A DNA stretch of 62,998 nt, counting the filler, from Dugesia japonica (Eukaryota): the NCBI GenBank assembly GCA_001938525.1. It is 6 parts of 6 records of this genome, joined end to end, with 100 filler letters (N's around TTAATTAATTAA, not from the genome) between each part and the next. Parts side by side here need not be neighbours in the genome. Positions count along the whole stretch, not along the records: positions 1 to 11,924 come from MQRL01530001.1; 5 more parts are not named here. The stretch is one strand, 5' to 3'. The stretch's first letter is position 1. Each line of letters starts with the position of its first letter. The position numbers and the translations under genes were made by a program. Positions 2,123 through 62,411 of this stretch are shown here, one piece after another. The notes under the pieces were generated by a model. That model did no database searches, was not told where the DNA came from, and saw nothing but the letters and a program-made list of their open reading frames with translations.

Positions 2123-2530
2123 TACGAGGATAGTTCTATAATCACTGTTAAAATAAACCGAAGGAGAATATATTTACACTATTCAAAGTTTATTTTTTAA
2201 CATAACTTTCATTAAGCTCCGTACGGTTATTCCAAGATTTATCGATTATTTTTATTCCTTCATTGTAGTATGATTTATCCAAACCCTCTAAACTCGTATT
2301 GACTTTACTGATGACTTTGGCATTTGATCTGGATTTTCTACTTGCAAGCTGATACTTCAATTCCGTGAACAAAAGAAATCAAAAGAACTAAATCGGGAGA
2401 ATATGATAGCTATTGAAACTATAGTCTTGAAGTTTCGTCATTGCAGTAGTCGACATAAGAGGAGGTGCTTTGTCATGAAGGAACTGCACCGTATTACTCG
2501 AATCTCTTCATTTAAGTACACCAATAATGT
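2123..2530 (-). mobile_element. Mariner transposase 3' remnant with terminal TIR
   Basis: Minus-strand FLHDKAPP (degenerate HDNA motif) and a C-terminus LKYQLASRK...LDKSYYNEGIK...WNNRTELNESYVK. A TA-CGAGG terminus lies at 2123. Confidence 0.75.
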
Positions 2531-4176
2531 AGGATAATAAAACGGTTAAATTAATAAGCTCTATATTAATTTACTAGGCATATTCAGTAAATCGGTGAAA
2601 AGTAAAACTGATTTCAGCACTAGTATCATGACACTTCTTTATTTACAAATAGATATTGAAGAGGAAAATTATAATTTTAAAAATCTAAATTCTAAAATAA
2701 CGAGAATCCCAAAATTTACCAGTCATAACTTTTCAAACAAATGTGATTATTATCGTCTTTTTTCGAGCTTGTTCCTTGATATTGTTCACTGTTTTGATTG
2801 ATTTTTGGTTTCGAATGTAAAGCGATAGATCAATGATTTATCAACAGTAATAAAACGCTAAAAAATGTCATTTGGATTGCATTTTAACAGGGTCATAAAT
2901 AACTATTAATAGCACATGCGCTCACAGTTTTAGTCAACTGGTAACAAATACGGCAGTTTTCTCATTTCCAAATATTTTCGCAAATTTGTAAATATGGATT
3001 CCAATGAAATTTGCACTATTAAATGAAAGGTTGGTTTAATTTATATTTGGAAGTTATTGCACCAAGATTTCCAATCATTTGTTCTTTATCATTTACACTG
3101 GACTGTGCAAATAAGTTACGAATACTCTTTAATATCAATCTGATTTTGCTTTAGAATGATAATTAGACTATTTCTTTTTCTTTAAACTCTTATTTTTAGC
3201 TTTCAATGTATTCACGGTTTTTTATGTCTCCTCATGTCTAACAATGAGGATTTTATTTTGGTCCGCCNNNNNNNNNNNNNNNNNNNNNNNNNNNNNNNNN
3301 NNNNNNNNNNNNNNNNNCAGTAGTCGACATAAGAGGAGGTGCTTTGTCATGAAGGAACTGCACCGTATTACTCGAATCTCTTCATTTAAGTGCACCAATA
3401 ATGTAGGATAATAAAACGGTTAAATTAATAAGCTCTATATTAATTTACTAGGGATATTCAGTAAATCCGTGAAAAGTAAAACAGATTTCAGCACTAGTAT
3501 CATGACACTTCTTTATTTACAAATAGGTATTGAAGAGGAAAATTATAAATTCAAAAATCTAAATTCTAAAATAAATCTAAGCATATTTTTCCTTTTTTAA
3601 ATTAATGAACGAGAATCCCAAAATTTACCAGTCATAACTTTTCAAACAAATGTGATTATTATCGTCTTTTTTCGAGCTGGTTCCTTGATATTGTCCACTG
3701 TTTTGATTGATTTTTGGTTTCGAATGTAAAGCGATAGATCAATGATTTATCAACACTAATAAAACGCTGAAAAATGTCATTTGAATTGCATTTTAACAGG
3801 GTCAGAAATAACTATAAATAGCGCATGCGCTCACAGTCTTAGTCAACTGGGAACAAATACGGCAGTTTTCTCATTTCCAAATATTTTCGCACATTTGTAA
3901 ATATGGATTCCATTGAAATTTGCACTATTAAATAAAAAGTTGGTTTAATTTATATTTGGAAGTTATTGCACCAAGATTTCAAATCATTTGTTCTTTATCA
4001 TATACACTGGACTGTGCCAATAAGTTACGAATACTCTTAAATATCAATCTGCTTTTGCTTTAGAATGATAATTAGACTATTTCTTTTTCTTTAAACTCTT
4101 AATTTTAGCTTTCAATGTATTCACGGTTTTTTATGTCTCCTCATGTCTAACAATGAGGATTTTATTTTGGTCCGCC
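2444..4176 (+). repeat. Near-identical tandem duplication (2444-3267 and 3318-4176) separated by an N gap
   Basis: Both copies start cagtagtcgacataagagg and end ttttggtccgcc. They differ by scattered substitutions and a roughly 35-bp indel. Confidence 0.9.
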
Positions 4177-5089
4177 GTTATTTTCTGCTGGATAAAAACA
4201 TATAATTCATAGTAAAATCTATGAGGAAATAATTATTATTTAATAATTTCATACAAAAGAAATTGAGTTAACTGAATATTAATATTGAAACTAATGTAAT
4301 CGTTTATATTTATTTTATCAAACATGTGTTGTAGTAGTTAAATAAATGATGTCTAAAATATTATTTTTGATTTGTAAAAGGAATTATCAATTGAAGATTT
4401 ACTTAACAAAACCATTATGAACTAAGTAATTTTTTCGAGGTAAGCCGCCCCGTGATTAAAGTATGAGAGTAGAAAAAAACATTTGCAGAATTGTATTTGA
4501 CTTAAATTTAGTTTATGCGTCATTATATTTTTAAAAAAGAAAAGAAAAAAAGATACATAGTTACCGTCGACGTGAAATACAAATGAGGTCAGGTAAAAAA
4601 ATCTCAACAACCACCTGCATTTTCGGTACCTTATTTGGTCTTATTCGTTCGTCTGCTCAGGACGTGAGTAGGTAGATAGTGGTACCACACCCCAATTTTT
4701 AAAGCAGTTATCGCGCACCCACTTCCCTCGGGGGGTTCGGAAACACATTACGATTGTGGTAAGAATTTTGTGCAATGATTTTTTGGTTTGTTTTTTTTCT
4801 AAGACTTTTAGGATCAAAAAAAATTTGATCGGATCAAAATTTTTTTGATCTTGTGATGGGTGTATTTTTAATTTTTAAAATTTGTGTGTGTTTGGGTTAC
4901 TAAGGGGTTTTTTAAAAAGTAGGTCAAGTTGAGTTTGTGTGTGTGGTTGTGTGTGTGAAAGAATGGTTTTGAACTCGAGGAGGAGCTGGAGATTTTGGAA
5001 ATAATTTTTTGGGGTTTTTAAGATTTTGTTGTTGTTGGACAAAAATTTGGTCTATACATTGTCTAAAAGACTTATGGGGTGGGATGGAT

Positions 5090-5330
5090 GAAGTTTGCTA
5101 GAAGGGTAGTGGCGCCACTCCACAGTCATATGAGTTATCATGGCTTGTTTTCTGGGAGGCTGTAGGGTTGTAGGACGTTATTGGATTTGGATGATTAATG
5201 TGTTGTTGGAAAGGTAATGTGATGGAAAATATTTTGTATGTCAAATGTGCTTTGATTTTTTATTTTAAGAGTTTTAATTTGATGGATTGTTTTTTGTAAG
5301 TAGTATAAGTGTGTTAAAAAAATTTTCGAG
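5090..5330 (-). pseudogene. Possible clan-CE (Ulp1/C48-like) cysteine protease remnant
   Basis: The minus strand reads HDNSYDCGV at about 5116-5142, like the Q-x-N-x-Y-D-C-G-V catalytic Cys motif. An upstream TLILL...*NS* could be a decayed HWxLL...YDS. Several stops are present. Confidence 0.4.
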
Positions 5331-5714
5331 ANNNNNNNNNNNNNNNNNNNNNNNNNNNNNNNNNNNNNNNNNNNNNNNNNNNNNNNNNNNNNNNNNNNNN
5401 NNNNNNNNNNNNNNNNNNNNNNNNNNNNNNNNNNNNNNNNNNNNNNNNNNNNNNNNNNNNNNNNNNNNNNNNNNNNNNNNNNNNNNNNNNNNNNGTACTT
5501 TTGAGTATTTATCGAGTATTTTTGAGTATGAAGGGTGGGTTTTCATATTTTTAGAGCAGGGAAGAGGGAAGTCTTGTTATTTTTTGGCGGGAAATTTGAA
5601 AAAAATATTTTTTGAAAGGAAATTCAAATAAATATATTTTGGTGGTAAATTTAAAATTTATATTTCAATGGGGGAATTTTTTTAATATTAATATTAAATT
5701 AAATTATTTTTTTT

Positions 5715-5880
5715 GAGAAGACTATATTTATATATGAGATAGGACAGTCTTGATATTTTGCAAGGGACGAGGGGAGTCTCTATATTTAGCATGATATGAG
5801 GCAGTCTTGATATTTTGCATGAGGAGCCTCTATATTTAACATGAGATAGGGTAGACTTGATATTTTTGTAAGATATATTG
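5715..5880 (+). repeat. Three degenerate ~50-bp direct repeats upstream of the ATPase
   Basis: Recurrent ctatattta..atgagatagg..agtcttgatattttgca unit. Confidence 0.7.
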
Positions 5881-6067
5881 AGGCAGTCTAAAATTCCATG
5901 GCATAAGATTCTCAATATATGTGTGTTGCATATGAGTTGCATACCTATTGCATTTATTTATAAAAATCACTTTAAATTTACAGGCATGTGATTTTCAATG
6001 TATGTGTGTTGCATATCTATTGTATACATATTGCATTAACTTTCAATTATAAACAATGTAATAAATT

Positions 6068-6451
6068 ATGAATAAATTAAAGAAAAATCAAGATTAAGAA
6101 ATGACGCAGTCTGTGAAATTGTTGGACCTAGCGGTAGCGGTAAAACATTGTTTGTATGCCAATTATTGAAATTAAAGTATATTTAAGTCTAAATTTAAAA
6201 ACATATACTGGTATAGAGGTGTAGATGAGGAGCATGTATTGACTAAATCTGAATTTTGTAATATTAAAATGAAAATCATAAATGGTTTTGATTCTAATTG
6301 NNNNNNNNNNNNAAGACCTGGTGATGTTATTGTTGTTGATGATCTGTATCAGGAGGCAAACAAAGAAAAAGATTTCAGTAATTTATTCACAAAGATATCG
6401 AGACATCGTAATGTGAATGTGATATTTATTACTCAAAAGCAGAGAGAATAA
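6068..6451 (+). pseudogene. A32/FtsK-HerA-type DNA packaging ATPase (Polinton/adintovirus)
   Basis: Walker A CEIVGPSGSGKTLFV (about 6112-6156), Walker B DVIVVDDLY, and the arginine-finger region LFTKISRHRNVNVIFITQ. Interrupted by a stop or frameshift. Confidence 0.9.
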
Positions 6452-7610
6452 AAGGAGAATACAATCTGGAGTCCTTTATAAATCCAATGACATAAATATC
6501 CAATAACGAAATTTTGTTGTATAAATATAAGTTAGAGAAGAGACTACAAAAAGGTTTTCATGCTTCAATATAAATTCAATCTCTTAGAAATAGTTTGGAA
6601 ATAATATCATTATTAATATTAATACAATAATTATTTTTTAATTAGATATTAAGAAAAGAAGAAATCATTAAAAAGCTTGAATTCGATCCTAAAGTTCTTG
6701 AAAACATGTCATTTTTGATGAAAAACTTGGTAAGGCTTTTTGAACTTGATGCGCCAACAGCAGCTATCGAGATTTATAAGGAAAAAAAGTGAACATTAAT
6801 AATAAATTGAACATTGACATACAATATTAAAGTCCAGAGATAATTAATATAAACAGAACAAATGCTAAAATGCAAGCTCTTTCCATTGCATTTGGTAAGC
6901 AAAGATAGTGTCGTGTGGATAGGAAGAAATGTAACGATAATATATTTTATCATGTAAACTTATTAATTATTAGTTTAAATCCAGTGTGTAATTTCAAACA
7001 ATCACACCAATATCTTGTTTCTTGGTTGTTAAAGACTTTATTTGTCAAGTGTTGTAAAAATTTTGTCTACTTTTATGTGTTGTTTTTTTTAATGTTATAT
7101 AATAAATCTTATTTAATCAAAGTCTTTTTTATTTTAAACATAGTTTTAATTAAATCGTTTAATAAAAAAAATCTTTTTTAAATTACTTTCTTGAATTGTT
7201 GGTAATATTTTTAATTCGGATACGAAATAATTTCTTTCAATATTTACCAGCTTTTCTTCTATAATAAGGTCTAAATTCATTATTAATGAACATTTAAATT
7301 ATTTTTGTATATATTTAACATGCTCCTGTCATGCACAATGGGTTTTTGCAATAAAAAAACTTAATAAATAATAAAAGAACTTAACAAATAATAAAAAAAC
7401 AAATGATAATAACAACGTTTATTTAAATAAAAACAATAATGTACAATTTTAGTCCTAAACAGGACCGGTTATACGTTCACAAATGTTTTTTTGAGAATGT
7501 TTTCTTTTGTAATCTAAATAAAAANNNNNNNNNNNNNNNNNNNNNNNNNNNNNNNNNNNNNNNNNNNNNNNNNNCCAGACTTGATCGAACGAACGATTTT
7601 ATGGAAAAAA

Positions 7611-9840
7611 CTACTTAATACTATCATGACCATATGAGACACTGTTGTTTTCATCTACCCATACGCGCTTATCGTCAGTGTTTGTTAGTGCTAATTTGTT
7701 TGACTTAATGCTAAATGATTGATAATTTTTGGTGGTTATCCTAAATTGTTTCACCGAGACCGATTTGTTCTCATTATAACAGTCAAGGTAAGACTGATGC
7801 AAAATTTCTGTGTTCTTCAATGTTATGCCTTTTGCTCTCATGCTATTCTTATCTCTGAGCAGGCTATAGCATTTTGGCCTCAAAAATACTCATTCTTGAT
7901 GCTTCTTCCCTTTATTTTCGTCTTTGAATTTCTCTATTACTGAGTTCATACTGTTACTATAAAAAGCATAATCTTTATCATAATTCGAAGTATCAAGAAG
8001 CTGATCTCTCACTATATTTGCTGTTATAGTTTCTAGTTTAATATTTTCTATGTCTAGAAAAAATCTATCTGTATCGCCGGCTACAATATTAATTTTACAA
8101 TTATATTCCTTCCTGTATTTGGCCAACTCAATGTACTGAAGTTTGTACATTCTCAATTTTGAGAGGTCAAGTACAGTTTGTCCTATGTAGCTCGGACAAT
8201 CTAAACAAACTATGTCCTTATTGAGAAGAACAACAATTAAATCATCAACCATTTTTGTAGTTTGCTTAAATCCGGCTTTTGATGTATATGTAATCAGTTT
8301 CTTTGCTGAATTACATAAGCACAGATTGATCCGGTTCTTGAGATTATCCACTGAGTTTCTATATAAACTGTTATTTAATAGTTTAAATTAACTTTTCTCC
8401 AATTTTGTTACACAACTTGATCTGAGAATTGTGTTTGTATTTATATAATTCTCAAAAATTGAAGCCTGGCTGAATTTAACTCCTCAATAAACCTCTGTTA
8501 CTTGAACCCCTAAACTTAAATACATATCTAGCAACTCCAGTGCACTACGTAATTGTTATTGGAGTAGTGCGTTAACATTAATTTCTTCACTTTACAACCT
8601 GTAGCTCTTCTATGTTCTACTGCAACCGGTAAATCATTCAAATAATCATGAATCTCTACTGGAATCACCATATTCACCTCTAGAGTGTATCCATATGACA
8701 ATGAATCTAGGTTTGCATTCTTACACTCTTCCAAAATCATGTCTAATCCATCATAAACCCATTCAAAGTTAGCAAAGGGCAACTTTTGACTAAGTGCCCA
8801 GCCATATAGATTATTAATATCTATATACAAAAGGTAAACATTTTCACTAGTGAGGATATGGTGTTTGTTAACAAATGTTAACCCTCCTCTTATACCTCCT
8901 TCAAAATAGGTATACATATCATTAACTTGGAGCAACTCAATTGGTTTTTCTAATGATATCAACGCAGATGCCCATGACATTCCAGGTATTCCGAAAAAAT
9001 TCAACGGCTCCAAATTGTTGTGTGCTAAAGACTTTGCACGGAATCCAACTTGAAATATAAGATCATATAGTCCAGCAAATTTTTGCAACTGAATATTTCC
9101 CGCACCGATAATGCTTTCTCATACTCTTCCCTACTAACTTAATCCCATTTTGGTGGTATTTGCTTTGTTTCTTCCAGAACCTGTAAGCTCGTTGCAAAAC
9201 TGTACGGAAATATCCCCTTTGACTTGGTAATAATTTTATTCTTAAACATCTCTGTAGTCAAAGGTGTCGCTTTTAAGGATTTGACAGCAGAGTCCAATAA
9301 AGACTTTTTGAAATGATAGCTGTCGATGAATTTAATTGTTGTTTTATTTTGTCATACAATTAAACATAGAAAATTTTTGATGTTGTTGGGATGCATGGTA
9401 TTGCCCAATTCTTGAACTTGTTAATACCATACTTAAGGATATGATGAATATCAATTCCTTGTAAATTATGAAAGACCACTGGTAGTTGAATATGCAATTT
9501 TCTGCTTAGGTTGCATTGGTTGCATGCTGCTCCTCTATATTTTCCTGTGAAATGATCATGGTCACGAACGGGATCTTTTATTTTCTTGTTACATAAATAA
9601 AAAATTTTGCAGCTTTGAATTCTTTATCACATCTTCAAAAACGTTATCAGTTTGGAGCAACGGCTCCATTTGATATCTTACAGGTTTTAAATTCCTCTTC
9701 TTCTCCATCAGCAGTTTTTGTTAACCTTTTGAACTCAACATGTACCCCAAATTGAATTTTAACTTGTTTCATTTCTTCTATTGCCTGAAATAATTTTGCA
9801 ACTATTGCTTTTGGTAACATTTTTTCACGACAATTCAATC
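7611..9840 (-). pseudogene. Protein-primed family B DNA polymerase (pPolB) with N-terminal EndoVII-like motif
   Basis: Motifs in order: DPVRDHDHFTGKYRGAACNQCNL; VVFHNLQGIDIHHI; IKFIDSYHF; KGIFPY; GIRGGLTFV; motif A YIDINNLYGWA; motif B KLLNNSLY; motif C AGDTDRF; LRPKCYS, RAKGI, DDKR. Many frameshifts. Confidence 0.92.
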
Positions 9841-9968
9841 TTGAAACATCTATTTTAAATATCCTATGACAGCGATAAAATCTGATTCTATAATTACTCC
9901 GTCATCCACAGTATTATTTGCTGATCCGCCAATTTAATTATTGTATTCCGCTCTTCTGCATCCATAAA

Positions 9969-10560
9969 TTAATGTAACATGATATCGTCATCACTATTTA
10001 TTATAGATCCACCAACTTGATTATTTTCTTCTTCCATATCGATTATCTGATTTAACACGATATCTTCTTCATCAAGTTCATCAAGTACTTCAAAACTGCT
10101 CCAATCATCAGGTTCAATATTGATTGCATCTTCTTCTTGTACATTATTTGATGTTTCTTCTTCCGGTTTCAAATTGATGATTTCTTAAACAATATATTCA
10201 ATTTTTCCAACTGTTTTATCCTTGATTATTATTTCTTCAACATCATCTTCAATGACAATTATTTCCACTGGTTCATCCTTAACTATTATTTTTTCCATCT
10301 TAATTCTCTTATTTACTTGTGCTTCATAAAATTCACTATCCATCTGCCTATCTAATATTAATTTTAATATATTCTTTTTACTTTTACTAAAACAAGACAT
10401 GTGTTTCTTATGTGTCCTATAAAAACTTNNNNNNNNNNNTAAACCTAATACCTTACAATTAGGACACACAAAATAATTTTTTCCATATAACCGTTGGTCA
10501 TAGTATCCTTCCATGATACAATGGCAGTCATCATTGTGACTCGCACTTGCGCAATGGTTG
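9969..10560 (-). CDS. Small viral-element ORFs: an acidic ORF (9969-10172) and a Cys/His-rich ORF (10185-10560)
   Basis: ORF track. The first is D/E-rich with a QVGG motif. The second has CxxC (CPNCK) and an upstream HCAS...DDCHC. Confidence 0.4.
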
Positions 10561-10719
10561 TATAATTTGCAATGTTCTAAAAATAATTTAATAATAATAT
10601 AATAATTTAATAATAATATAATAATTTTAATAATAACATAATGATTTTAATAACATTTTTTTCTTTATAAAATATATAAGCTATGATATTTTTCCAAAAA
10701 AAACATATAAGAGTAGTAA

Positions 10720-10875
10720 TTTTGAATAAAAAATATCATTAACGATGCAATTTTAAATAAAAATCACATTAGCGATGCAATTTTTAATAAACAATCTCAT
10801 TGACGATGTAATTTTTAATAAAAAGTCACAATAGTGATTATATTTTTAATAATAAATCTCATTTGCGTTGCAATT
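10720..10875. repeat. Five ~31-bp direct repeats inside the Polinton-like element
   Basis: Unit approximately tttttaataaaaatc(a/t)catt..cgatgcaa. Preceded by ~18-bp ataatttaataataatat repeats at 10583-10655. Confidence 0.8.
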
Positions 10876-10934
10876 TAAAAAAAAACATATTAGGTAAACA
10901 CATTGAATTATCAACTATTATTTGTTGTACTTCA

Positions 10935-11500
10935 TTAGTTTCATGCTTTTATATCCATACTGATTTCAACAAAGGTACATTAACATTTCCTACAATTATA
11001 GGTTCAACAAGACTACTATAGATGAACATTTACTGATGTAACTTATTGATTTTCGGATTTCTATCACCTTATATTACACCATTCTTCATATGTGCAAGTG
11101 AATAATATTCTTTTTCTAAGCCAAATGTTCTTGACAAGACTTTATCGAATGGAACTGTTTTGATATCATCTTTCAGTGAGAACTGAAATAAATTATTTGC
11201 TTTGAGAGAAATTGTATTAAATATTTCAGATCCGCTTTCTGTTAAATCTTTACTTAGTTGATCTATTTCTGTTATGTATAATTCATCTTTTAACTGTACA
11301 GTATGATAGGTTACTTTAGAATAAGCCATTCTAATTTTTACATTTTTTAATGAAGAATCATATTTAAATAATGAATACATAATAGAAAGCTATCCTTTGT
11401 CCATTTCGTTTGATTTATATCAGATTCCAAATTTATGTGCGATTTTCTCATGTTCAAATGTGAGTACATATTCACAATACAGATTAACAACAAAGAGTTA
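10935..11500 (-). pseudogene. Polinton minor capsid protein (penton) remnant
   Basis: The minus strand near 11030-10950 reads MFIYSSLVEPIIVGNVNVPLLKSVW, matching the Polinton penton motif (F/Y)xYxxxxEPxxVGDxxxPLL(R/K). The upstream ORF 11069-11380 has LSRTFGL, similar to the LxxxLGF motif. Confidence 0.7.
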
Positions 11501-11816
11501 AATAACCTCTGAAAGATATAAAAGCATTCTCATTTTTCTTGACATTCACGGCTTTTGCTTTGTGATTAAGTGTAACATTTTTTTCATTTACTATATTTTT
11601 TGATGTCATTTATTGAATTTTAGAATTGCTATATAAAGGAAATGTTTGATATACAAAGGTAAAATCTAACAATGCAACTTCTCAACTACCATCCCTATAA
11701 ATTGGATTTTGATGCTCAACAATGAATTTCCTAACATTATTCTCCGGATTAATAAGTGGACAGCTATAGTAGTAGGAAAGGAGGACACGAAGACAGAAGG
11801 GGGGCACCAATCCCCC

Positions 11817-11904
11817 GTTGCCATGGCAACCAATGAAGGTCAAGGTCGTTTCCATGGCAACCAATGTATGGCAAGGTCGTTTCCATGGCAACCGCCTTAG
11901 CAAC
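11817..11904. promoter_or_regulatory. Cluster of three RFX X-boxes at 31-bp period with CCAAT and CAAGGTC motifs
   Basis: GTTGCCATGGCAAC at 11817-11830; GTTTCCATGGCAAC at 11848-11861 and 11879-11892; half-site CTTAGCAAC at about 11896-11904. Confidence 0.65.
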
Positions 11905-11924
11905 GGTATCTAGGTCATTGGTTA

Positions 11925-12024
11925 NNNNNNNNNNNNNNNNNNNNNNNNNNNNNNNNNNNNNNNNNNNNTTAATTAATTAANNNNNNNNNNNNNNNNNNNN
12001 NNNNNNNNNNNNNNNNNNNNNNNN
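11925..12024. other. Artificial scaffold-joining spacer (N44-TTAATTAATTAA-N44)
   Basis: The same 100-bp construct recurs five times; the 12-mer has stops in all six frames. Confidence 0.95.
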
Positions 12025-14136: not shown

Positions 14137-14137
<1 letters not shown>

Positions 14138-14960
14138 TGCAAGATAGATTTATTCTTAAAACAGACCATAAAGTTATCACTTTTATGCTAAATACCAAGA
14201 AACCGATCACATTACAGTTTCAAACTTGGATTAATTACTTGAGCAGTTTAGATATAAAACTGGAATATAGAAAAGCATCGTTTCATACAAATCCGTATAT
14301 ATTGTCAAGGAGTAAATACGATACATGTGTACAATGTCTAATGTCACATGTTATTAAGATCCCAAGAGAGGAAAATTAAAAACAAGGATGTTATATACAG
14401 TAGATATACAAACAAAGCAAGGTAATTTTGGAGAAAATGATGAATAAACATGGATAACCGATGATAAAATAGAAGAGGTTATAATGAGGATACACCATCT
14501 GTTATGTCATGCTGGAGCAGGAAAAGTAGCAGNATATATAAAGCATNAATATAACGCGAAACATTTGTAGAGCAAAGTACAAGAGGTTGTCCGAAGCTGT
14601 ATAACATGCCAGAAAGCTAAAGTGTTGTCTACAAAAACGAAGGAAGAAACGAAAATGACACAAGACAAGATGAAGATACCATACGGAAGGCAATAATGGG
14701 GAAGTGGATATTAAAGTTCGGGTGTCCGAGAAAAATGCAAGTTGATTGTGGAAGAGCATTTGAATCTAAATCAATGAAAGCTAAACATGGAATTACTCTC
14801 AGGTTTTCGAGTTCATATAATCATAATACAAATGAAAAAATCTAGAGGCAGTTTAAAACTATGCGAGATATGATAAATATGACGCTTAAAAAAAGGAAAA
14901 CCTCAGATTGGGTAGATGTATTACCAGAGATAGAATTTACCTTGAATGCTACAAAACAGT
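14137..14960 (+). mobile_element. Ty3/gypsy pol remnant (RNase H C-terminus and integrase)
   Basis: RFILKTDHK...WINYLSSLDIKLEYRK...ILSR; integrase HHLLCHAG; MQVDCGRAFES; DWVDVLPEIEFTLNAT. Confidence 0.85.
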
Positions 14961-15385
14961 CTATCAATTTAAATATAATGGATGTAACGCCACATACATT
15001 GAAGAGACTTCCCGTCATCTCTGCACCAGTGTTCAAGAGCATAATCGAAATAGAGCAAATACTAATTTTGTTGAGCATCGGAGAAAATGTATAAAATCAA
15101 TAGTGTTTTCTGATTTTAAAATCATGTGCAGTGGGTTTAATAATTATTGGGAGAGAGTGGTGTGTGAAGTTTTGTTGATAAGAGCAATAAATCCTAAAAT
15201 TAATGTTCACTTGATGGATTCAACATCGCTCTTAAAATTNTTTTATTGATTATTTATTGAGATTGCATAATTGAAATTATATAATCACTTAAACTTTGTA
15301 AATAGTTTGTTTTAATATTCTTTAATTGCCTGATGATGACGGTTATTCCGTCAAAATTGATCGCAATTAACAAATATTTTAAAAA
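14955..15385 (+). mobile_element. Penelope-like element 3' end (GIY-YIG endonuclease and pLTR)
   Basis: VYQFKYNGCNATYIEETSRHL..SVQEH...EH...ERVVCEVLLIRAINPKIN, followed by a hammerhead motif. Confidence 0.85.
15322..15370 (+). ncRNA. Minimal type-I hammerhead ribozyme motif (G12A mutated)
   Basis: ttaattgc CTGATGA T GACGG ttatt CCGTC AAAA ttga TC gcaattaa: perfect 8-bp stem I and 5-bp stem II. Confidence 0.75.
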
Positions 15386-22103: not shown

Positions 22104-22203
22104 NNNNNNNNNNNNNNNNNNNNNNNNNNNNNNNNNNNNNNNNNNNNTTAATTAATTAANNNNNNNNNNNNNNNNNNNNNNNNNNNNNNNNNNNNNNNNN
22201 NNN
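22104..22203. other. Artificial scaffold spacer
   Basis: N44-TTAATTAATTAA-N44. Confidence 0.95.
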
Positions 22204-24539: not shown

Positions 24540-25780
24540 AAATACATACATTGTTAATAACTGAATGTTAAGTGCTCGTATTTAATTTGACTCTAACATT
24601 TTTCTTTTCAACCCAAAATTTTTTTTTTTCGCGATCCTAAATTTTGTCAAGATCCATAGTTCAAGAAACATCTGCTCTATATAATTGCTGAGCACAGCTT
24701 TATGTTGTACATTAATCTTCATCGTACTATTGTTACCATCATCCACTTCAATTAAATTTTCAATACGTTCTATGATTTTATCGACTTTATTGTTGGCCTT
24801 CTTCTGGTGGCTTTTGGATAAGCCTAGAAATGACTTCTCTGTATCTTCTATTAGCATTCTTTCCACATACCCCATGTTGTTCCAGTGTGGAAACCTTTGT
24901 TGCCACCTAACATCTTCATTCTAATTAACGGATAGCCATTATCACGTTTTTATCAAACAATCGGATAAGATCAATCTTCTGTCTGGCATTCTCTCTTTAT
25001 CTCCACAGAAAGTAAACGAATCATCACCATTTCCTAAATTTCTATTATTTTCATCGACAATAACTCCTCNNNNNNNNNNNNNNNNNNNNNNNNNNNNNNN
25101 NNNNNNNNNNNNNNNNNNNNNNNNNNNNNNNNNNNNNNNNNNNNNNNNNNNNNNNNNNNNNNNNNNNNNNNNNNNNNNNNNNNNNNNNNNNNNNNNNNNN
25201 NNNNNNNNNNNNNNNNNNNNNNNNNNNNNNNNNNNNNNNNNNNNNNNNNNNNNNNNTTCCATAATTGGCTTATTCCTTGCTTTTTCATGCCGGAATGTTG
25301 ATATTAGTTCGTGTTCATTAATGACATCTTATGTTTTGCTCTATTTCCTTTAATGTAATTACAATATTTGTCCTCAATCGTCGGTTTGTATTTGTTTATA
25401 GCTCTTGAAGATTTTTTTCAGCTATCTATTATCAGAAATAATATAAATTATTATTTTAAATTGATAAGGACCGAAAGGATTAATAAATGCACTTTTAGGC
25501 CTGTCCTGAAATTTTATTGGCACTTAATAAAATCCTTTCGTTAGATCAATCGTATTAATATATTTTGAATTTCCTAACAAATCAATTATTTTCTCGGTCG
25601 CTGGCATTGGATAACAGAGTGAAAGAGCTTCATCTGTAAGGATAGATTGTAAAAATATTCTCCATTTGTGATGTTTGATTCCTTGAGTAGTAGTCCATCT
25701 TTCAAAAGGATTGAAATAAATCTCAATTTTATCACCTGCGATATATGGCTGAAAAGCAATTAGTTGGGGCAATGTGTAGG
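24540..25780 (-). mobile_element. Internally deleted Ty3/gypsy remnant (gag N-terminus fused to RT)
   Basis: Gag-like GDKIEIYFNPFER...KWRIFLQSILTDEALS runs directly into RT YPMPATEKIIDLLGNSKYINTIDLTKGFY*VPI...KSAFINPFG. Confidence 0.7.
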
Positions 25781-25788
25781 AAATATTA

Positions 25789-26992
25789 TTAGGTCGACAC
25801 ATAAGTTATGTCGATTATTACGGAAAACTTTAAACAACAAAATGACACAGTATATTATTTAAATACATAGGCACTATTGGTTTCTACAATGTCTCTCTAT
25901 CTTAATAAAAATTTACTGGCTTGGAATCGAAAAATTCTTAGATAGCAATATTTAAAGCTTCATAAGAAACGAATCTTTTCCCGACCAAGAAATATTGCAT
26001 TGCCCGGAACAGGTTGTAGTCAGAAGGTGCAATGTCCGGACTGTATGGAGGATGAGAAAAAAGTTCCTAGCTAAAGTCGGTAATCTTCTGGTCTGTCTTC
26101 TTTGTGGTATGCAGTCGTGCATTGTCCTGATGAATAATGACTCCATTTCTGTTTGCTAAAGCTGGGCACTTGTTTTCAATTTCATTTTCCAATCTCTCCA
26201 ACTGAGCACAAAATACATCCGCGGTTATTGTTTCACTAGGTTGCATCAGCTCGAAATGAATAATACCCATAGCCAACCACCAAACACTTAACATTACGTT
26301 TTCGCCATGAACATTTGGTTTCGCAGTGATTGTAGGTCTTTTGCAAGGTCCATTGCCTTTTACGACTGCAGTTGTCTACATAACCAATTTCTCGTCACCA
26401 GTTATGATACGATTCAGGAAGTTTTCATTTTTTTTGGAAATGAACATTTTGCATATTGGAATCCTCTTCTTCTTTTGGTCATGGGTAAGTTCATGAGCGC
26501 CCATATTCCTACCTTGCTTTCTTTACCCATTTTTTAAATGTAGGCGAATTATTTCTCTATTGATTCCTAATTGTGAACTCATTCCAATCAGTGTTTAACA
26601 TGGATTTTTTTCAATCGATGCCTGTATAACGTCAGTAACCACAGTCGGCGATCTGCCCAATCTAGGAGCGTCNNNNNNNNNNNNNNNNNNNNNNNNNAAT
26701 GGGAAAAACCATTTCTATCATTTTATGACATCAACAGCATCCGGATAGATTTGGTTAATTGATTTTGCAGCCTCTGATACCGTTTTATCATAATAAAATT
26801 CGTAAATCATACAATGTCGTATGTGATTTTCATTCGCATTTAATACGTATTCATCAATTTATTCGAAAACTATTTAAGCGTTAACTTACTTTATAAAATC
26901 ACCAAAAACAAATAGTTTTGACACATTTAAACAATTTAATAATTGATTGAATATGAATTATTAAAAAACGACATTACTTATGTGTAACTATA
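25789..26992 (-). mobile_element. Near full-length degenerate mariner (cecropia-like) with both TIRs
   Basis: TIRs ttaggtcgacacataagttatgtcg / cgacattacttatgtgtaactataa. Motifs IWALMNL (degenerate WVPHEL region), VTGDEK, MLSVWW, HQDNARLH, SPDIAPSDY. Confidence 0.9.
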
Positions 26993-32789: not shown

Positions 32790-32889
32790 NNNNNNNNNNN
32801 NNNNNNNNNNNNNNNNNNNNNNNNNNNNNNNNNTTAATTAATTAANNNNNNNNNNNNNNNNNNNNNNNNNNNNNNNNNNNNNNNNNNNN
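32790..32889. other. Artificial scaffold spacer
   Basis: N44-TTAATTAATTAA-N44. Confidence 0.95.
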
Positions 32890-35120
32890 CAACATCGATT
32901 TCCTGATTTTACTTCCTGGATCACATTGATGTTCGGTTGCAATGCGCAAGTCATTGAAAAAATCGTGTTTGTTGACACAGATGATTCAATCACTAAATTT
33001 ACTAGAAGTGAAAGAAATATTTTAAAAATATTTATTTTTAGTTGTCAATGAAAGATTTCGAATATTTACTAGATGTCGAAGAAAAGTTTCTAAAAGTTAC
33101 TAAAAGTCTCGTAACTGTTATATAAATTTAGCAGAAATTGAAAAAGTTCACTATAAATTTATGTCGAAGAAAGTTCTCAAAGGCTTAGTAGATGTCGAAG
33201 AGATTTTTTTAAAAGTCTTGAGATTTTTTCATAAATACAAGTTCATGAGAGAATTTGTAAATAGATTTCAGCTATGAGTCAAATAGTATAAAANNNNNNN
33301 NNNNNNNNNNNNNNNNNNNNNNNNNNNNNNNNNNNNNNNNNNNNNNNNNNNNNNNNNNNNNNNNNNNNNNNNNNNNNNNNNNNNNNNNNNNNNNNNNNNN
33401 NNNCCGTCATCTCACTATGCATTCAACAATACCAAACTTGACCTGAACGGATAATAACTACAAATACTAGAGCAATTCTTTCAAAATGTGCATTCAAACA
33501 AAAAATATATATTCAGTAAATATAGTCAATATATATTTAATTTGCAGAAATATTTTTAAAAATTCATAAAAAATTTTAAAAAATGGGCTAAAACATAGGA
33601 TGTTAATTACATTNNNNNNNNNNNNNNNNNNNNNNNNNNNNNNNNNNNNNNNNNNNNNNNNNNNNNNNNNNNNNNNNNNNNNNNNNNNNNNNNNNNNNNN
33701 NNNNNNNNNNNNNNNNNNNNNNNNNNNNNNNNNNNNNNNNNNNNNNNNNAAAAGTTTTACTGTTTCAGTGAACACTAATACATTATCAATTAATTATTTT
33801 TATAAAAATTATAAATGCAGATTTAAATTTTATTTTAATATTTAATTACCATAAAGGACAAAATTTACAACTTTTTACGCTCTCCTGTCTTCTAGCAAAT
33901 ATACAAATTTATTCTATGCACACATACTCATTAGTATGCATTTATCAAAACATACATATTTTAGGGTAATTACTCGTCCATGATTTAATAAAAAAAATCA
34001 ATGTTTTATTGTATTTTACTATTGCTATTGGTTCAAAAACTGCTGAAATTAATTTGGCAATATTATTTTTTCGATTAAAATCTGCTAGTTTATATTTTCT
34101 CACCTACTTACAAATTTAAACAAAACGACCAATGAAATTGAATCCAGTTTCGTACTAATTATGCCCAACTAAATTTAATTATATTATGATTATTTGATTC
34201 TGTAAATAAATGTAAACAAAAGATATTAAGAGATTTTCAAAATATATTACAAAACAAACTAAAATACATTTATCATTTTCATACGAAAGTCACATTACAT
34301 AACTTGCATTTATTCAATTCTTTGGCAAAAGATTTTTTTGGAAGCATTTAACCTAGTCAAATATATTTTCACATCATCAATAAATACATTTTATATACAC
34401 ACGATACGAATCAACATAGAATATGTTTTCCCATTTTATCAGCAGTTGTCAATAATGATAAAAACTATTTGAAACTCATTTAAATAGTACAACAAAAACC
34501 CGTTAATTAACAAATGCTATAATTTAAAAAAGACATTACTTTCAATTATCGTTACTTACTATAGACAGTAGATATTAACTAGTAAAATTTCTAAACGATT
34601 AACTATTTTTAATAAGTAATACAACATTGGAATGATGGTGTATTTTAACTTGATTAGAAAAAAATTAATTTGCTTAACCACAAATAAATATAATTTACAA
34701 AAACAACATTATTAATAGCACACATTCATGAGGTATTAACACTAAAAAACATTGCTTATAAATCTATATACAATCGATATATAATAAACATTGTTACTAG
34801 AAACTGACTTCATTTTAATTTACCTTTTCTTCGACTAAGTTTTTTTTCTCAACATAATTGACACAAAAATAATTTTATTTACAATGAAAAAAAGAAAACA
34901 GAAAAAACAAAAAAATAAAATATATATCGTTGGGTAAATGCGCCATTTGACACGAATTAATTAATTGAAAATTGAACACAAATATACATGTGAAATTCAA
35001 TTTACAAGATAGATTATTTTGTGTGGAGATTTTTCGTTTCAAATCGACTATGATAATAATTATGGACTAGAAATAGTTTTCAATTTTTTCCACTTGTTCA
35101 CATTTCTCCATTTTATTTTA

Positions 35121-36611
35121 TTAATTACTGATATTTGCAGTCGCTGTTAATGGTTTCATCATACACTTTTTCTTGTGATAATTATATGAAGCGTTCCAAA
35201 AATAACCCTTGCCGCATTTTTCACAACAATATTTTGCTTGATCTGAATGCTTACCATCAAGATGTTGTTTGAGACTGATTTTCGTCATGAAACGACTTTC
35301 GCAAAAGTCGCATTCAAAAGGCTTTTCGTCTTGCAATGTGTTAGTTGGAGTTGGCGCGACTGCACCTACTGGAAGAGTTTGTGTTAACCCAACATTATCT
35401 GAATTTGATAGAACTGGAAAACTCGGTAAAGTGGGAGCACTAGTTGAATTGGGGATAAAATTAGGAATCACAGAATGAACGGAAGGACTCGTTATTCCAC
35501 CACCATTGACAGTTTGTATGTTGGAAATTAATGTGGGATTTTGCATTGATTTATAATCAATAATTTTTTGCAAAATCATTGCTCGAGCGGAAGCAATACA
35601 TGTACGCTTATGTTCATACATATCAGTTATTATAGTAGTTTTAAAACCACAAAGACATTGATCTGGAATTTGATGAGAAAATACTTTTGGAGATTGCTGG
35701 ATACGAGATTCATTATGATTAAATGAAGTACTGATAGTAGAATAATTGAAATTTGTTTTCTTTCCGTTATTAGAATCTTGTGAATCGTTTAAAGCTAATT
35801 TCCTTTTACTACATTGTTGTTTATGAGTATAAAATTGTGGAGGCCAACGAAAACGTCTACCACAATATTCACACTCGTGTCTAGGAGGAAAATGCAAATG
35901 TTTATGTTGATCAAGAAGACCTTTAGATTTAAAGTTTTTTTCACAGTGCTCACATTCATAAACTTTACCGGTTCGTTTTGGTTGATCTTGACTGTTTGGA
36001 GAAGAAGTATGTATAGATATCGGAAGACATGCTTTTTCAGAATGGGAAGAATAATCCACGTTCATAGCATTAATAGAATAGTCTGTGATAGGAGTTTCTT
36101 TACTTTCATTTTTTACAAGATTTAAAGGATTTGCGTAATCTAATGGCAAATCATCTGAATCGTCATTTTGAATTGGTGTTTGTTCAGTAGAATGTGTAAG
36201 CGGACTACGAGATTCAAATACGGGTTCTGATGGTTCTTTTTCTTCATCTTGTATACTTTCACTTTCTTCGAATTGCTGCTCATCATTGAAGCTGTTTTGT
36301 AAAAGATCTGTAGCAGCAATTGGACATATAATATAGTGTGCCAGAAAATGTGACATGCTATTAAAACACTGATTACAAGTACAAGGAAAAGTTCCACTGA
36401 GGTCATGACATTCATCAAAATGATTTTCAATTTCTTGTTGACTTGAAGACATGTATTTACATTCCGGACAGACGAATCTATTCACAGCAATAAGACTTGG
36501 TGTATTTTCCTGATTCATTGTAGTTGAGGAAGAACTAGAATTTGAATTGGTATGTTTTTCGACAGAATATTGCATAGTTGCAGAATCATTTGGTGATTCT
36601 TCTTTTACTTT
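35121..36611 (-). CDS. Zinc-finger transcription factor, large terminal exon (C2H2 + C2HC finger pairs)
   Basis: 484-aa ORF with 7 fingers, e.g. CEHC..F..K..L..H..LH-PPRHECEYCGRRF....H...C. The frame extends to a TTTAG acceptor near 36612 (KVKEESPNDSAT). Candidate first exon MTDVLNAGSRKM|GT near 38465-38500. Confidence 0.9.
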   Translation of the reverse strand, partial: KVKEESPNDSATMQYSVEKHTNSNSSSSSTTMNQENTPSLIAVNRFVCPECKYMSSSQQEIENHFDECHDLSGTFPCTCNQCFNSMSHFLAHYIICPIAATDLLQNSFNDEQQFEESESIQDEEKEPSEPVFESRSPLTHSTEQTPIQNDDSDDLPLDYANPLNLVKNESKETPITDYSINAMNVDYSSHSEKACLPISIHTSSPNSQDQPKRTGKVYECEHCEKNFKSKGLLDQHKHLHFPPRHECEYCGRRFRWPPQFYTHKQQCSKRKLALNDSQDSNNGKKTNFNYSTISTSFNHNESRIQQSPKVFSHQIPDQCLCGFKTTIITDMYEHKRTCIASARAMILQKIIDYKSMQNPTLISNIQTVNGGGITSPSVHSVIPNFIPNSTSAPTLPSFPVLSNSDNVGLTQTLPVGAVAPTPTNTLQDEKPFECDFCESRFMTKISLKQHLDGKHSDQAKYCCEKCGKGYFWNASYNYHKKKCMMKPLTATANISN

Positions 36612-42864: not shown

Positions 42865-42964
42865 NNNNNNNNNNNNNNNNNNNNNNNNNNNNNNNNNNNN
42901 NNNNNNNNTTAATTAATTAANNNNNNNNNNNNNNNNNNNNNNNNNNNNNNNNNNNNNNNNNNNN
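42865..42964. other. Artificial scaffold spacer
   Basis: N44-TTAATTAATTAA-N44. Confidence 0.95.
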
Positions 42965-52008: not shown

Positions 52009-52108
52009 NNNNNNNNNNNNNNNNNNNNNNNNNNNNNNNNNNNNNNNNNNNNTTAATTAATTAANNNNNNNNNNNNNNNNNNNNNNNNNNNNNNNNNNNN
52101 NNNNNNNN
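52009..52108. other. Artificial scaffold spacer
   Basis: N44-TTAATTAATTAA-N44. Confidence 0.95.
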
Positions 52109-54696: not shown

Positions 54697-57099
54697 AAAT
54701 TAAAACAAACGTCAAGTTTTACGTAAAATTGTTTCAATTATTTTAATTTAAAATCTACATATCAGAATAAAAATAAAAATTTTACAAAAACTAAGTAATT
54801 TTTCGCATATTCGGAATTCGGAAATTTGAAAACTAGAAATTTAATTTTTAACTTTTTGAGTTAGACAAAAAGTAGCACACAAAAAGATAGATTAAATTAA
54901 AGTTTTTAGTCTTAAAGTTAGTTATCTGAAAAAATTAATATTTTATTTTATATTCATTACGAAGAACAGTAGTTTCTTATGACTTTTATATACTAGTTTA
55001 AAGAAAATAACAAATTTATAAAGTCTGGTGTTCTAAAATATGGAAACAAAAATAAGAGAAAATAAAGTCAATCAACTTTTTATCAAACCAAAAATATTTA
55101 TTAGTGATAAATTATTATGGGAAATAATGTTTTTTTTAGATAAATTTAATGAAAAAATATTAACTTTTAAAAATAAAAAATGACAACATTTGTAAATTTA
55201 AAACGAGAATTAAAATATATTATAACAAAGTGAGGAATCTAGAAACAGGCATTTAAACTATGATAATTGAATCACAAAATGGATGAAACAATACATCTTT
55301 GTAGGTGATATTTTATTTTTATACAATAATGTATTAACCGTTATAGACTAACGTCCCATTTGTCGGACAAGTACAATAATTTTTTTATGTGTATATATAG
55401 CATATTCTGATACTCCCATGTTCCAGAATCCTATTTGTAGGGCAGTTCAAGATCCAATACTGGAAAGAGATAAAAAATTGTATTTATAATAGACGTATAT
55501 AAAAAATTTAATATCAACATATAAATAAGTTTGGCGTTGAGTTAAAGATTTTTCTGTTTAACTTGACCTTAAATATTAGGTCTTTTAACCAAAAAATCAA
55601 TAATTGAAACGCGATAGAAACTCTTAATAAATTAACATTTTGTAAAGGACACAAAATTGCACTTTACTAATTTCATTTGATTTCGTGGTATTTTCCTAAA
55701 CTTTTCCTCAAAAAAAGCTACATAAATATCTGAACACTTTCTAATAATTGCGAATACATAACTCAAGTGAGTGAAAAGTTAAACCTTTTAATAAAAATCA
55801 TTTTTTTCAATATGAAAAACCATACCAGATAGGGTGGTTCGTGTCAACACATTAATTGGAAATAAAGTTTCCAAATAGTTTAAAATCTATGAGAATAGAG
55901 TGGCTAAATAGATGGGAAACGTTTTGAATGAGAATAGTTAAGAAAATTTAAAGAGATTTGTTCCAATAATACGTATAACAAGCAGACATTTCATTAATTA
56001 CTTTTAGTAATTGATTATATATTATTCGATTATGAAGATGGATGTAACTCCGTAAAATGAATTAACGTAAATTGTTTCTAAATGAATAAAATGAGATAAA
56101 ATACATCAAATCTTGGTATATTTAGATGATCAATATTATTCACAGTAACTTATTTTTTCACATTAATTTCAAAACAATTTAATTCTTTTCAATAGCTTTA
56201 TTAATTTTAAAGTTCAAACATTTCACTGTAAATATTTTTTAATTATGACTGATTTAAATTTGAAGTTTTCTTTTCGCTCATCCCAAAGAATAATACTTGA
56301 TATAAATATTTTAAAGATTTTTCTTTTGATAAAAAATAAAATGCTATTTTAAACAAAATAATATTTTTTCAAATATTATAATTATTAACTGTACAAAAGT
56401 GCTTTATAAATTTCGGAAAATATTCATAATTATACCATGTTAAATCAATTTTGTACGTCAGGACAATTTCTACTAAATTTCATATATTGAAAATATCATC
56501 ATAGCTTTGACAAAATAAAAGTTCATAAATATAATAAATGAAAACAATTTATTCATTAATAAATGTTGGCTCGATTTATGGAAATTTCCAATTTTCAACG
56601 GTATCATATTTTCATCTATGACATATAAAATTACCGTACAAATATCAGGACAGTGAAATGTGATTTATTACATGCGGATCTGTATTAATTCTTCAAACAG
56701 GTATTTCCAAATTCTATGTTTGAATCATGGTAAATTTAGTGATGTTTGAAAGATAACTTACAGCTATTTTAATTGAAAACTTTTTTCCATGAAATTCTAT
56801 TTTTTCAATGAATGAAGTATTAAAACTTATTAATTGTCTTATTGTACGTTAAATAATATCAGATGATTTCCATCTTGGGTAACATGATATCAAATTTAGC
56901 TAAACAATGAATATTTCCAAACAATATGCTCATTTTAATTAATATACCCATATTAATAATATGTTCATTTTAAAAAAAACTTTTGGTATATTATTTAATA
57001 TTATGTCCATCCAAATACTGTACAAATACAATATAACTATTTTACTGATAAAGACATTATAATAATGGAAACTTGATTTCAAATGTCTTATCAATTCTA

Positions 57100-57420
57100 T
57101 TCTCTGTCTATTCTCTGACAGCATTTTTATTGGTGAACAACTTTTTAAACAAAAAAGTGGTTTGACAATGTATAAAAATTTGTCTCCTATTTTAACAATA
57201 ATTTTTATGAACTTCATTCAAAATAGAATAACTCTCAAAGCTAAGAAGATACAACTTTGGATCAGATATATAGACAATATTTTTTTTGTTACTAATTCTC
57301 CTTTAGACAATATTAATGAAGTCTTCAAACACCTTCAACACAAACATAATATTTTACCAGAAAAACATCATATTTCATGGTAAACATTAGTAACAGGCTA
57401 CATTTCTACACTTCTCAGAA
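57100..57420 (+). mobile_element. Decayed Penelope-like RT fragment
   Basis: FKQKSGLTMYKNLSPILTIIFM...LWIRYIDNIFF resembles Q..G..MGSPLSP.LANIFM...W.RYVDDIF. Confidence 0.7.
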
Positions 57421-59732: not shown

Positions 59733-61132
59733 CTGTTTAAAACGCAGAATAGAGTATATATACTCAAGTTCCGCATTATGCAATCGATTATGTAATAATC
59801 TCAATAAAATTCCAATTAATTAAAGACATTCAATAAAGATTTATTGATACCAGTTTGGACATTAATTTTGGATCATATGATCTAATCATCAATGCTTTGC
59901 ACATGATTCTTTCACAATAATCTTTTAAATTTCTGTACAGAATTTTGAAATTATTAATATTTATAACTGAATTACACTGAATATTGTGTTCGGCAATATT
60001 ACTGTAACTACCTAACCGACTATGTTCCTGAATCCTTTTAGAGAGATGACGGGAAGCCTCTCCAATGTAAGTGGCATTACACCCATTACACTCATATTTA
60101 TAAATAAGATTAGAAACCAATNCACAAGGAGTCTTAAATTTATTACTGAACGAATATTGAATTTTTTCAATTTTTTTCTAAATTATATGAATTCTTTACA
60201 CTCGAATACAAAGTGCACAACTAAAATGGAACGTAATGGTAAATTTCCTTTTCTTGATTTATTATTAGAAAGGAAATCTGACCAAAATGAGACAGAAATC
60301 TACCGAAAGCCAACTGATACTGGTTTATATACAATACCTGGTAGTTTCTGTGGATCTCGATATAAATTTAATATGATTAAAGGTTTAATATATAGATCTT
60401 GGATTGTCTCTTCTTCTTTTTCGAAGTCGTGTGTAAATATTCAAACCTTGAGTTTTTGTTAAATAAAAATGAGTATTCTAAGAAAGATTAACGTACGAAA
60501 CGATTGATAAAATTATTCTAAATACGAATAATAATTTAAACGATAAAAATGTTATTAAAGATCCAGATAAATCTAATAAAATTGAGAAAAAATTAGTTGT
60601 TTTAAATATTCAGTATTCTGAGGGCTTTAAAGATTTTAAAAATGGTTTGCTAAAATATTCAGTAAATCTTCCAAATTTTCAGATTGTGTCACGGTCTTTT
60701 AAACTTATAAGTGCGTTCAGTAATAAGTCTAGACTCATTGTGGATTGGTTTCTAATCTTATTTATAAATATGAGTGTAATGGGTGTAATGCCACTTACAT
60801 TGGAGAGGCTTCCCGTCATCTCTCTAAAAGGATTCAGGAACATAGTCGGTAAGGTAGTTACAGTAATATTTCCGAACACAATATTCAATGTAATTCAGTT
60901 ATAAATATTAATAATTTCCAAATTCTGTACAGAAATTTTAAAAATTATTGTGAAAGAATCATGTGCAAAGCATTGATGATTCGATCATATGATCCAAAAT
61001 TAATGTCCAAACTGGTATCAATAAATCTTTATTGAATGTCTTTAATTAATTGAAATTTTATTGAGACTATTGCATAATTGATTGCAAAATGCGGAACTTG
61101 AGTATATATAATCTATTCTTCGTTTTAAACAG

Positions 61133-61739: not shown

Positions 61740-62411
61740 AAAATGACAATTTTATCTGTGTGCATTTCTGCTTGAACTTCAACCTGTTACTCGTCTGAAT
61801 CCCTGTGTTAAAATATAACTTATAATAGACAAGTTAATATTGGACAATCGGCGACGTTCCGTACAATTGTTGGATGAAACTCCGAAACATTTTCCAAAAC
61901 CAAATTTACACTAAAAAAGATTATGTTGACTGTTTGGTGGTTCACGGATGTCCTGATATATCAGTTTTTTAAATCCAGGTAAAATTATTACAACAGGGAA
62001 ATTCTACAAGCAGATGAAAGAAATCAATATGAAATCACAACGCATTAACCCCGCATTAATCAACAGAAAGGGTGCAATTATGTTACACAACAATTCCCAT
62101 CCACACAATTCACAAAGAACACCGCAGATATTAAAAGAGTTGGACTACAAAATTTTGACTAATCACCCATACTCGCCAGACCTCTCACCAAAAGACTTCT
62201 ATTTCTTTAAGGAAAAGTGCGGTAAAAAGTTCTTTTTCTATAGAAACTCAGACTTTTACTCAACTTATATCAATAAATTTGTTTTGCTTTGGCAGAAATA
62301 TATTGAATGTGTTGGTTTTTATTTTGAATAATATTGCTTATTTTGAGTTAAGTTATTGCGTTTTTATTTCTATAATTAAAAAAAGCGATATAATTTTTTC
62401 ACCAGCCTAAT
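61740..62411 (+). mobile_element. Mariner (cecropia-like) 3' half with TIR
   Basis: PKHFPKPNLH*KKIMLTVWW; MLHNNSHPH; HPYSPDLSPKDFYFF; WQKYIECVGFYFE; terminus ...ttttcaccagcctaa-TA. Confidence 0.9.

Follow-up and report, generated by a model that had tools for sequence, protein, structure and literature searches.

Do the gene remnants at the right-hand end of one Dugesia japonica scaffold (MQRL01530001.1, assembly GCA_001938525.1) represent an uncharacterised virus-like lineage with a gene layout of its own, as an earlier note on this DNA had suggested, or the decayed copy of an element of a known kind? The scaffold is the first of six, of about 10 kb each, which together with the N-flanked linkers between them (11925-12024, 22104-22203, 32790-32889, 42865-42964 and 52009-52108) make up the 62,998-nucleotide stretch analysed in this work (the window; G+C content 22-28%). 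Our results indicate that the remnants very probably belong to a pseudogenised, defective copy of a heavily repeated Polinton-type element, a copy that likely lost a major block through one internal deletion. Judged by its sequence, the element is of Polinton/adintovirus-like origin, a point on which the earlier note holds, and appears to be a dead, unremarkable offshoot of an element type already known. This copy is unable to replicate, to insert itself or to be packaged, its polymerase, ATPase and penton genes being each truncated and frameshifted. The odd gene layout is mostly the result of decay: besides the block, about 340 codons of pPolB (the protein-primed DNA polymerase B), with vOTU and ExoI, and the penton C-terminus are also gone. 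The features are as follows (positions in the window, strand where assigned).

4720..5331: high-copy, G+T-skewed segment, probably the left part of the element (depth rise in bin 4795-5059)
5578..6060 (+): repeat arrays with 27-, 28- and ~83-bp units upstream of the ATPase, a likely promoter region
6091..6438 (+): the N-terminal 60% of an A32/FtsK-like packaging ATPase (11-129 of 218 profile positions, E=2.2e-30)
6433..6438: deletion junction from the cut ATPase into the middle of the next gene remnant (homology break and reads leaving)
6433..7042 (+): remnant of a conserved protein, keeping its C-terminal part and interrupted by stops and frame changes (tblastn map)
7614..10514 (-): pPolB pseudogene (full-length relatives mapped on the window)
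9617..9635 (-): internal pPolB deletion, profile positions 138-479 (~340 residues) being replaced by 17 nucleotides
10659..10885: tandem array of 31-bp units that separates the penton-like gene from the start of pPolB and begins where penton homology ends
10892..11765 (-): pseudogene of a penton-like protein (single jelly-roll minor capsid), split over two frames; it lies upstream of pPolB and in the same orientation
11807..11924: 31-bp array upstream of the penton-like gene, with X-boxes and CCAAT boxes, running off the scaffold end

Polymerase, ATPase and penton remnants

All the motifs on which the earlier note had relied were recovered when their positions were checked in six-frame translation. 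On the plus strand these are Walker A (GPSGSGKT, ~6127-6150) and, in a second frame within 6176-6451, Walker B (VIVVDD) and SRHRN; on the minus strand, the EndoVII-like motif falls within 9360-9623, the pPolB motifs run in order from 9390 to 7614, and the penton motif sits at ~10960-11030. They lie beyond chance, with expectation values (E) down to 1.6e-84 for pPolB, the ATPase value listed above and 2e-23 for the penton profile on the window, and the products find matches among pPolBs, A32-like ATPases and pentons of single jelly-roll type, a comparison which that note had itself proposed. Not described before were the N-terminal part of the penton gene (11529-11765), the remnant of a fourth gene (6433-7042) and three internal deletions.

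The pPolB pseudogene, in which the frame changes at least five times and several stops occur, is divided into at least six frame pieces, in the order Cys-rich N-terminus (10514-10227), acidic linker, part of a putative terminal-protein region (9904-9635), HNH/EndoVII insert, ExoII-III and PolA-C. The open piece at 8531-9118 gave 91 protein matches among 438 candidates (E to 1.6e-84, best 78% identity); PF03175 is annotated on most of these matches and PF02945 on many, and the only organism names among them are those of ant proteins, at 32-37% identity. Pfam recognised none of the window pPolB frames, the ATPase or the penton, with the sole exception of the EndoVII insert (PF02945, E=2.9e-5), whose motif is present in 44 of the 45 relatives of at least 1050 residues, ant proteins included. 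Neither the vOTU Cys/His motifs nor those of ExoI were found in any frame of the scaffold, versus 39 of the 45 long relatives that carry the former and likewise 39 that carry the latter. The earlier note had listed small open reading frames (ORFs), acidic and Zn-binding, as part of the layout. Among nine proteins mapped, three full-length pPolBs align with the Cys-rich (Zn-binding) ORF at 10227-10514 over their residues 1-86, 1-67 and 4-57, and between this ORF and the following pPolB piece, still in the same frame, comes the acidic stretch; therefore, both are the polymerase N-terminus and not separate genes. A second short pPolB scrap stands at the start of another scaffold of the window (32887-33000, -).

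The ATPase shows one frame change after Walker A and an N gap (6301-6312), and ends just past the SRH..ITQ motif. It is 63% and 61% identical to the ATPases of two intact relatives, loci L003 and L005, which match Pox_A32 (E 4.8e-6 and 1.8e-6, respectively). The penton piece matches the penton family in hhalign (99.7%, E=1.6e-25) until homology stops near residue 300 of 340, so that the last ~40 residues are missing and the 31-bp array starts there. The 340-residue penton family (28 sequences) was modelled with a pLDDT of 87.8, and its model matches the mavirus penton (E=2.8e-8), Sputnik, the adenovirus penton base and viral minor capsids; this fold was predicted for an intact relative and not for the window piece. 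In the Atlas, the window piece gave only a lead of 0.76, and the intact penton led to unnamed clusters. As far as the model goes, the window penton piece is a predicted member of the single jelly-roll penton family.

The missing block and the two junctions

Metagenome contigs were scanned with a 17-sequence alignment, and the 252 pattern matches gave 54 loci; in viral_contigs, neither the pPolB piece nor the alignments of pPolB, major capsid protein (MCP) and ATPase found a relative. L003 and L005 hold pPolB and ATPase with the whole block between them, convergent with pPolB and in the order protease-MCP-pX-penton(s)-integrase-small ORF-ATPase, with an MCP gene of 403-408 residues and an integrase (rve, E ~1e-12) in both; the pPolB-proximal part follows the same order in L022, L031 and L040. 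The 403-residue MCP, a protein present in 5 of the 54 loci, gave a model (pLDDT 62.9) that matches double jelly-roll capsids, the best being a Cotesia bracovirus protein (E=1e-17, 23% identity); PDB sequence searches had no match for pPolB or MCP. Intact members of the parent lineage thus carry the predicted genes by which Polintons are defined. They also contain a TBP-like gene (PF00352, E ~1e-17), and L003 has in addition a ubiquitin-conjugating enzyme gene and two pentons; the coordinates noted with the TBP-like and ubiquitin-conjugating findings are 11333-11779 and 13480-13974 in L003 and 10321-10764 in L005.

In the scaffold of the element, the profiles of the double jelly-roll MCP (five sequences), pX, Adenain/Ulp1-like protease (six sequences), exonuclease, integrase, small ORF and TBP found no match, and the retroviral-type integrase has its sole match in unrelated sequence on a different scaffold (14702-14968). 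The window copy lacks four defining Polinton features (capsid, integrase, protease and vOTU/ExoI) and is filed here as a defective derivative. A candidate protease at 5002-5331 (motif DNSYDCGV, ~5110-5135, -) was rejected, having no Pfam or PDB protease match. As the earlier note had stated, major capsid and integrase are not seen in the scaffold; its suggestion that they may lie beyond the scaffold end is improbable, for the protease too, since L003 and L005 have all three between ATPase and pPolB.

That interval measures 5.3-6.6 kb in L003 and L005 versus 1.2 kb in the window, a difference of 4-5.4 kb (6572 and 5255 nucleotides, respectively, between the ITQ motif and the end of pPolB, versus 1175). 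The gene remnant that follows the ATPase misses its N-terminal 57-75 residues, in a family with members of up to 235 residues. When 1.84 billion proteins were searched, five relatives emerged (E to 5e-20); the alignment of P0125 starts with its residue 58 at 6433, other relatives reach 7042, and none of them has a Pfam family above noise. RNA reads depart from the window sequence at 6438, 60 of them in run X13 and 8 in run X16. The junction is therefore seen from both sides, because ATPase homology stops at 6439, the next gene begins in mid-protein and reads leave there. Most likely, the structural block was deleted internally between ATPase and pPolB.

Following the established Polinton model, which is represented here only as the gene content of relatives, the linear genome of the parent element would be copied, in a protein-primed manner, by a polyprotein made up of terminal protein, vOTU, exonuclease and polymerase, with an HNH insert in the present case, and would be inserted by a retroviral-type integrase. 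The ATPase would package the genome into a double jelly-roll capsid with penton vertices, which the protease would mature. From the window copy, integrase, major capsid, protease and other structural genes would have been lost by the single deletion between ATPase and pPolB.

The layout itself had been read in the earlier note as the mark of a separate compact lineage, with capsid and integrase past the scaffold end. A divergent penton-like gene does stand upstream of pPolB, gene order varies among relatives and the sequence past 11924 is unseen, all of which would suit that proposal; we nevertheless consider it highly improbable, since ATPase and pPolB are convergent in L003 and L005 too, the interval is shorter here and has a visible junction, the ATPase is cut where relatives carry the block, the small ORFs belong to pPolB, and the scaffold ends in a looping tandem array instead of coding sequence. 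It is also very unlikely, if less so, that the scaffold is a chimera of diverged copies collapsed in short-read assembly, with the junctions and the penton position as artefacts. In favour of a chimera are the extreme repetitiveness of the family, the lack of a contig across the whole stretch, the four N gaps inside it and the fact that, among the pieces listed, none was shown to bridge either junction; against this, both junctions are in gap-free sequence, thousands of contig pieces are at least 99% alike to the window copy (3,916 of 44,345 in DNA run X1), and other deletion joints are common in the family, so that deleted copies are expected.

The chance is slight, a shade below that of a chimera, that we are dealing with a non-autonomous subfamily, in which a fixed deleted form was amplified by the enzymes of full-length elements. 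Such a form would agree with the high copy of all parts from ~4800 to 11924 and with a possible terminal array having been kept. However, summed contig depth in X1, a measure that is no copy number, drops about sevenfold at the ATPase junction (504k to 69k across 6438) and six- to elevenfold at the pPolB junction (a dip to 27.6k, flanked by 308k and 171k), RNA reads leave at 6438, and this copy differs by 5-15% from most others. From depth, with that same reservation, we infer that most other copies are without the two junctions and that the deletions are particular to the window copy or a small subgroup, not the sign of a successful non-autonomous family.

Several observations weigh against a deleted Polinton copy as the full account, in addition to the warning that depth is no copy number and to the four N gaps, at which collapsed repeats may have been joined wrongly. 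Inside the window no terminal inverted repeat was found, as neither end has an inverted copy there and the right one is truncated within a tandem array where the scaffold stops, and no target-site duplication was found, one element end being missing. The parent gene order comes from relatives that are only 52-63% identical, and this order is variable in the clade, with the ATPase right after pPolB and on the same strand in L008, L043, L046 and L049. The gene at 6433-7042 has no counterpart in 59 loci, L003 and L005 included. Finally, the window penton is ~30% identical to the pentons of relatives, while ATPase and pPolB reach 55-70%, and its position upstream of pPolB was found in no fetched locus.

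The limits of the deleted copy proposed here could be placed as follows. The right limit given in the earlier note, 11924, stands and is a true scaffold end; the left one, 4420, has to be moved to ~4720-4800, because 4382-4717 is covered in two DNA runs by one contig of depth ~10 with one difference, as single-copy sequence, and high contig depth begins in bin 4795-5059. An N gap (5332-5494) divides the left segment from the remaining element, and a hairpin at 4812-4850 has z=-4.8, a value reached by none of 200 shuffles; Rfam gave no match. Two AGTAGT sites were rejected as termini: the one at 11768 sits in the penton first codons, on the other strand, and single-copy sequence separates the one at 4333 from the element.

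Copy number, transcription and candidate promoters

Contig pieces of the family were counted at 85% likeness over 30 bins in three DNA runs of organism A, X1 among them, and in one of organism B (X8). The organism A runs contained 44,345, 34,721 and 35,685 pieces, with all 30 bins represented, and X8 revealed a related family of 5,093 pieces, also across all 30 bins. This sequence is repeated to very high copy in the organism it comes from, and two thirds of the X1 pieces are less than 95% alike to the window copy. In RNA, 978 of 13.6 million reads of X13 fell on 6320-9920, only three of them at a likeness of at least 99%, together with 80 of 11.6 million in X16 and 74 of 10.5 million in X12. 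Members of the family are present in RNA at a low level, and the window copy is not evidently among them. The strand of this RNA is ambiguous, since first mates map to the plus strand at ~4:1 over pPolB, yet also at 73:32 over the convergent ATPase, and the signal may be read-through from host transcripts.

The internal repeat arrays reported earlier are present, four in number (5578-5823, 5891-6042, 10659-10885 and 11816-11893). The array at the scaffold end continues past 11924, because contigs loop back there by 42 in all four DNA runs. It contains three RFX X-box palindromes (11817, 11848 and 11879), a number reached by none of 100 shuffles, with adjoining CCAAT boxes at 11807, 11830 and 11861, and its first X-box is the exact RFX motif quoted in the available text of PMC4168999. 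This array may possibly lie inside a terminal repeat. The X-box pattern had no match in the 54 related loci, though no locus was shown to include a terminus, and five single matches in viral_contigs, none with a Polinton gene.

A second candidate emerged upstream of coding sequences. In the genes checked in L003, L005, L008, L022, L031, L040 and L046, the hexamer ATAAAC stands 32-47 nucleotides before the start in 18 of 25, against ~0.06 expected per 60 nucleotides; all five major capsid and all four ATPase genes have it, and neither the two TBP-like nor the two integrase genes. The window has ATAAAC at 6049, 42 nucleotides before ATPase homology begins, and we regard the hexamer as a candidate lineage-wide promoter box; a further copy at 6849 was rejected as a promoter, being inside the 6433-7042 gene. 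The site at 5586-5600, which we take to be CDE/CHR-like, is weak (two matches versus 1.11 expected with one mismatch; one exact match versus 0 of 100 shuffles), was picked post hoc and was found in none of the related loci.

It is conceivable, though rather unlikely, that the family is a still-transcribed polintovirus overrunning its host genome, which would tie a large unnamed environmental polymerase clade to an animal host and would use two promoter systems: a host-factor array of RFX X-boxes and CCAAT boxes at one end, switched on in ciliated or germ cells, and the ATAAAC box, through which a TBP encoded by the virus would serve the packaging and capsid genes. If functional, the X-box array would tell in which host cells such elements become active; the literature searches, one of them on RFX and Polinton terminal inverted repeats, found no published account of this.

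Lineage and surroundings

The polymerase part of the window and 90 of 105 candidates were placed in a FastTree phylogeny (475 columns, midpoint root); the 15 candidates with fewer than 380 aligned residues were dropped, the Polyergus and Ooceraea proteins among them. The window pPolB groups with P0001-P0003 (65-70% identity, support 1.0) within a larger clade of unnamed environmental sequences, and three Camponotus rows fall outside that clade. Regarding the pPolB phylogeny proposed in the earlier note, a clade without named member among the matches was indeed recovered; its newness does not follow, since the tree holds no reference Alpha or Beta adintovirus or Repbase sequence and 'unnamed' is not equal to 'new'.

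The element shares with Polintons/Mavericks (class Polintoviricetes; NCBI family Eupolintoviridae; available text of PMC11161782) a pPolB of their type, a packaging ATPase and a penton, and its intact relatives share the integrase, protease and double jelly-roll capsid. The terminal protein-vOTU-exo-palm plan of the Polinton pPolB, with a proposed role, is described in that same text. The window copy differs by having no integrase, capsid, protease, vOTU or ExoI and by termini that were not found, whereas the intact relatives add the TBP-like gene and up to two pentons. As for the Alpha adintoviruses (Alphadintovirus; Starrett et al., PMC8502044, as far as its text is available), an OTU-bearing PolB of PF03175 type is shared (P0004 and P0009, E 1e-31 to 1e-32), and the capsid of the relatives best matches a Cotesia bracovirus protein, a Cotesia bracovirus circle being among the Alpha maps of that paper. 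In contrast, the L003 and L005 pPolBs are below PF03175 in the same scan, with PF02945 only, and the pX-like gene of the relatives is short, with no sign of a PLA2 domain. The PF03175 and capsid matches seem to lean towards the Alpha class of PMC8502044; the host names and motifs searched for in the accessible part of its supplementary text were not found there.

HNH-bearing pPolB2 of nematode and oomycete Polintons (available portion of PMC10748475) has likewise an HNH/EndoVII-type nuclease inserted in the polymerase, the inserts being likened by domain type only; that portion calls HNH exclusive to nematode and oomycete pPolB2, in contrast to its frequency among the long relatives described above. 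In flatworms, the available rows of the PMC10748475 supplement give 748 pPolB1 linked to an integrase, from 8 of 73 Platyhelminthes genomes, and not one pPolB2, and the accessible texts on Dugesia (bioRxiv 10.64898/2025.12.11.693146) and Schmidtea (PMC8532177) report a Maverick expansion and piRNA-silenced Polintons, respectively. The present element resembles these flatworm Polintons/Mavericks in its very high copy in an AT-rich animal genome with (AAT)n arrays, a likeness by description only.

Animal genomes commonly contain decayed Polintons, hundreds of which are catalogued in flatworms, so that the window copy itself matters little. Its value is that of a pointer to a very large, partly transcribed family, and it links a set of unnamed environmental polymerases to an animal genome.

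The surroundings consist of AT-rich sequence with (AAT)n arrays and, on the scaffold of the element, a host gene with a doublecortin domain (249-623, -; Pfam E=9e-14), which together fit an animal genome. To the left of the element lies a tandem duplication (2444-4190) of a ~900-bp unit, 96-97% identical. Gypsy integrase-like, Penelope-type GIY-YIG/reverse transcriptase-like and mariner transposase-like remnants were labelled by eye at 14137-15249, 25524-26375, 57066-57383, 59830-60904 and 61957-62331, only the integrase piece being profile-tested. An intact C2H2 zinc-finger open frame of 495 residues occupies 35121-36611 (-) and has only two relatives, at 88% and 31%.

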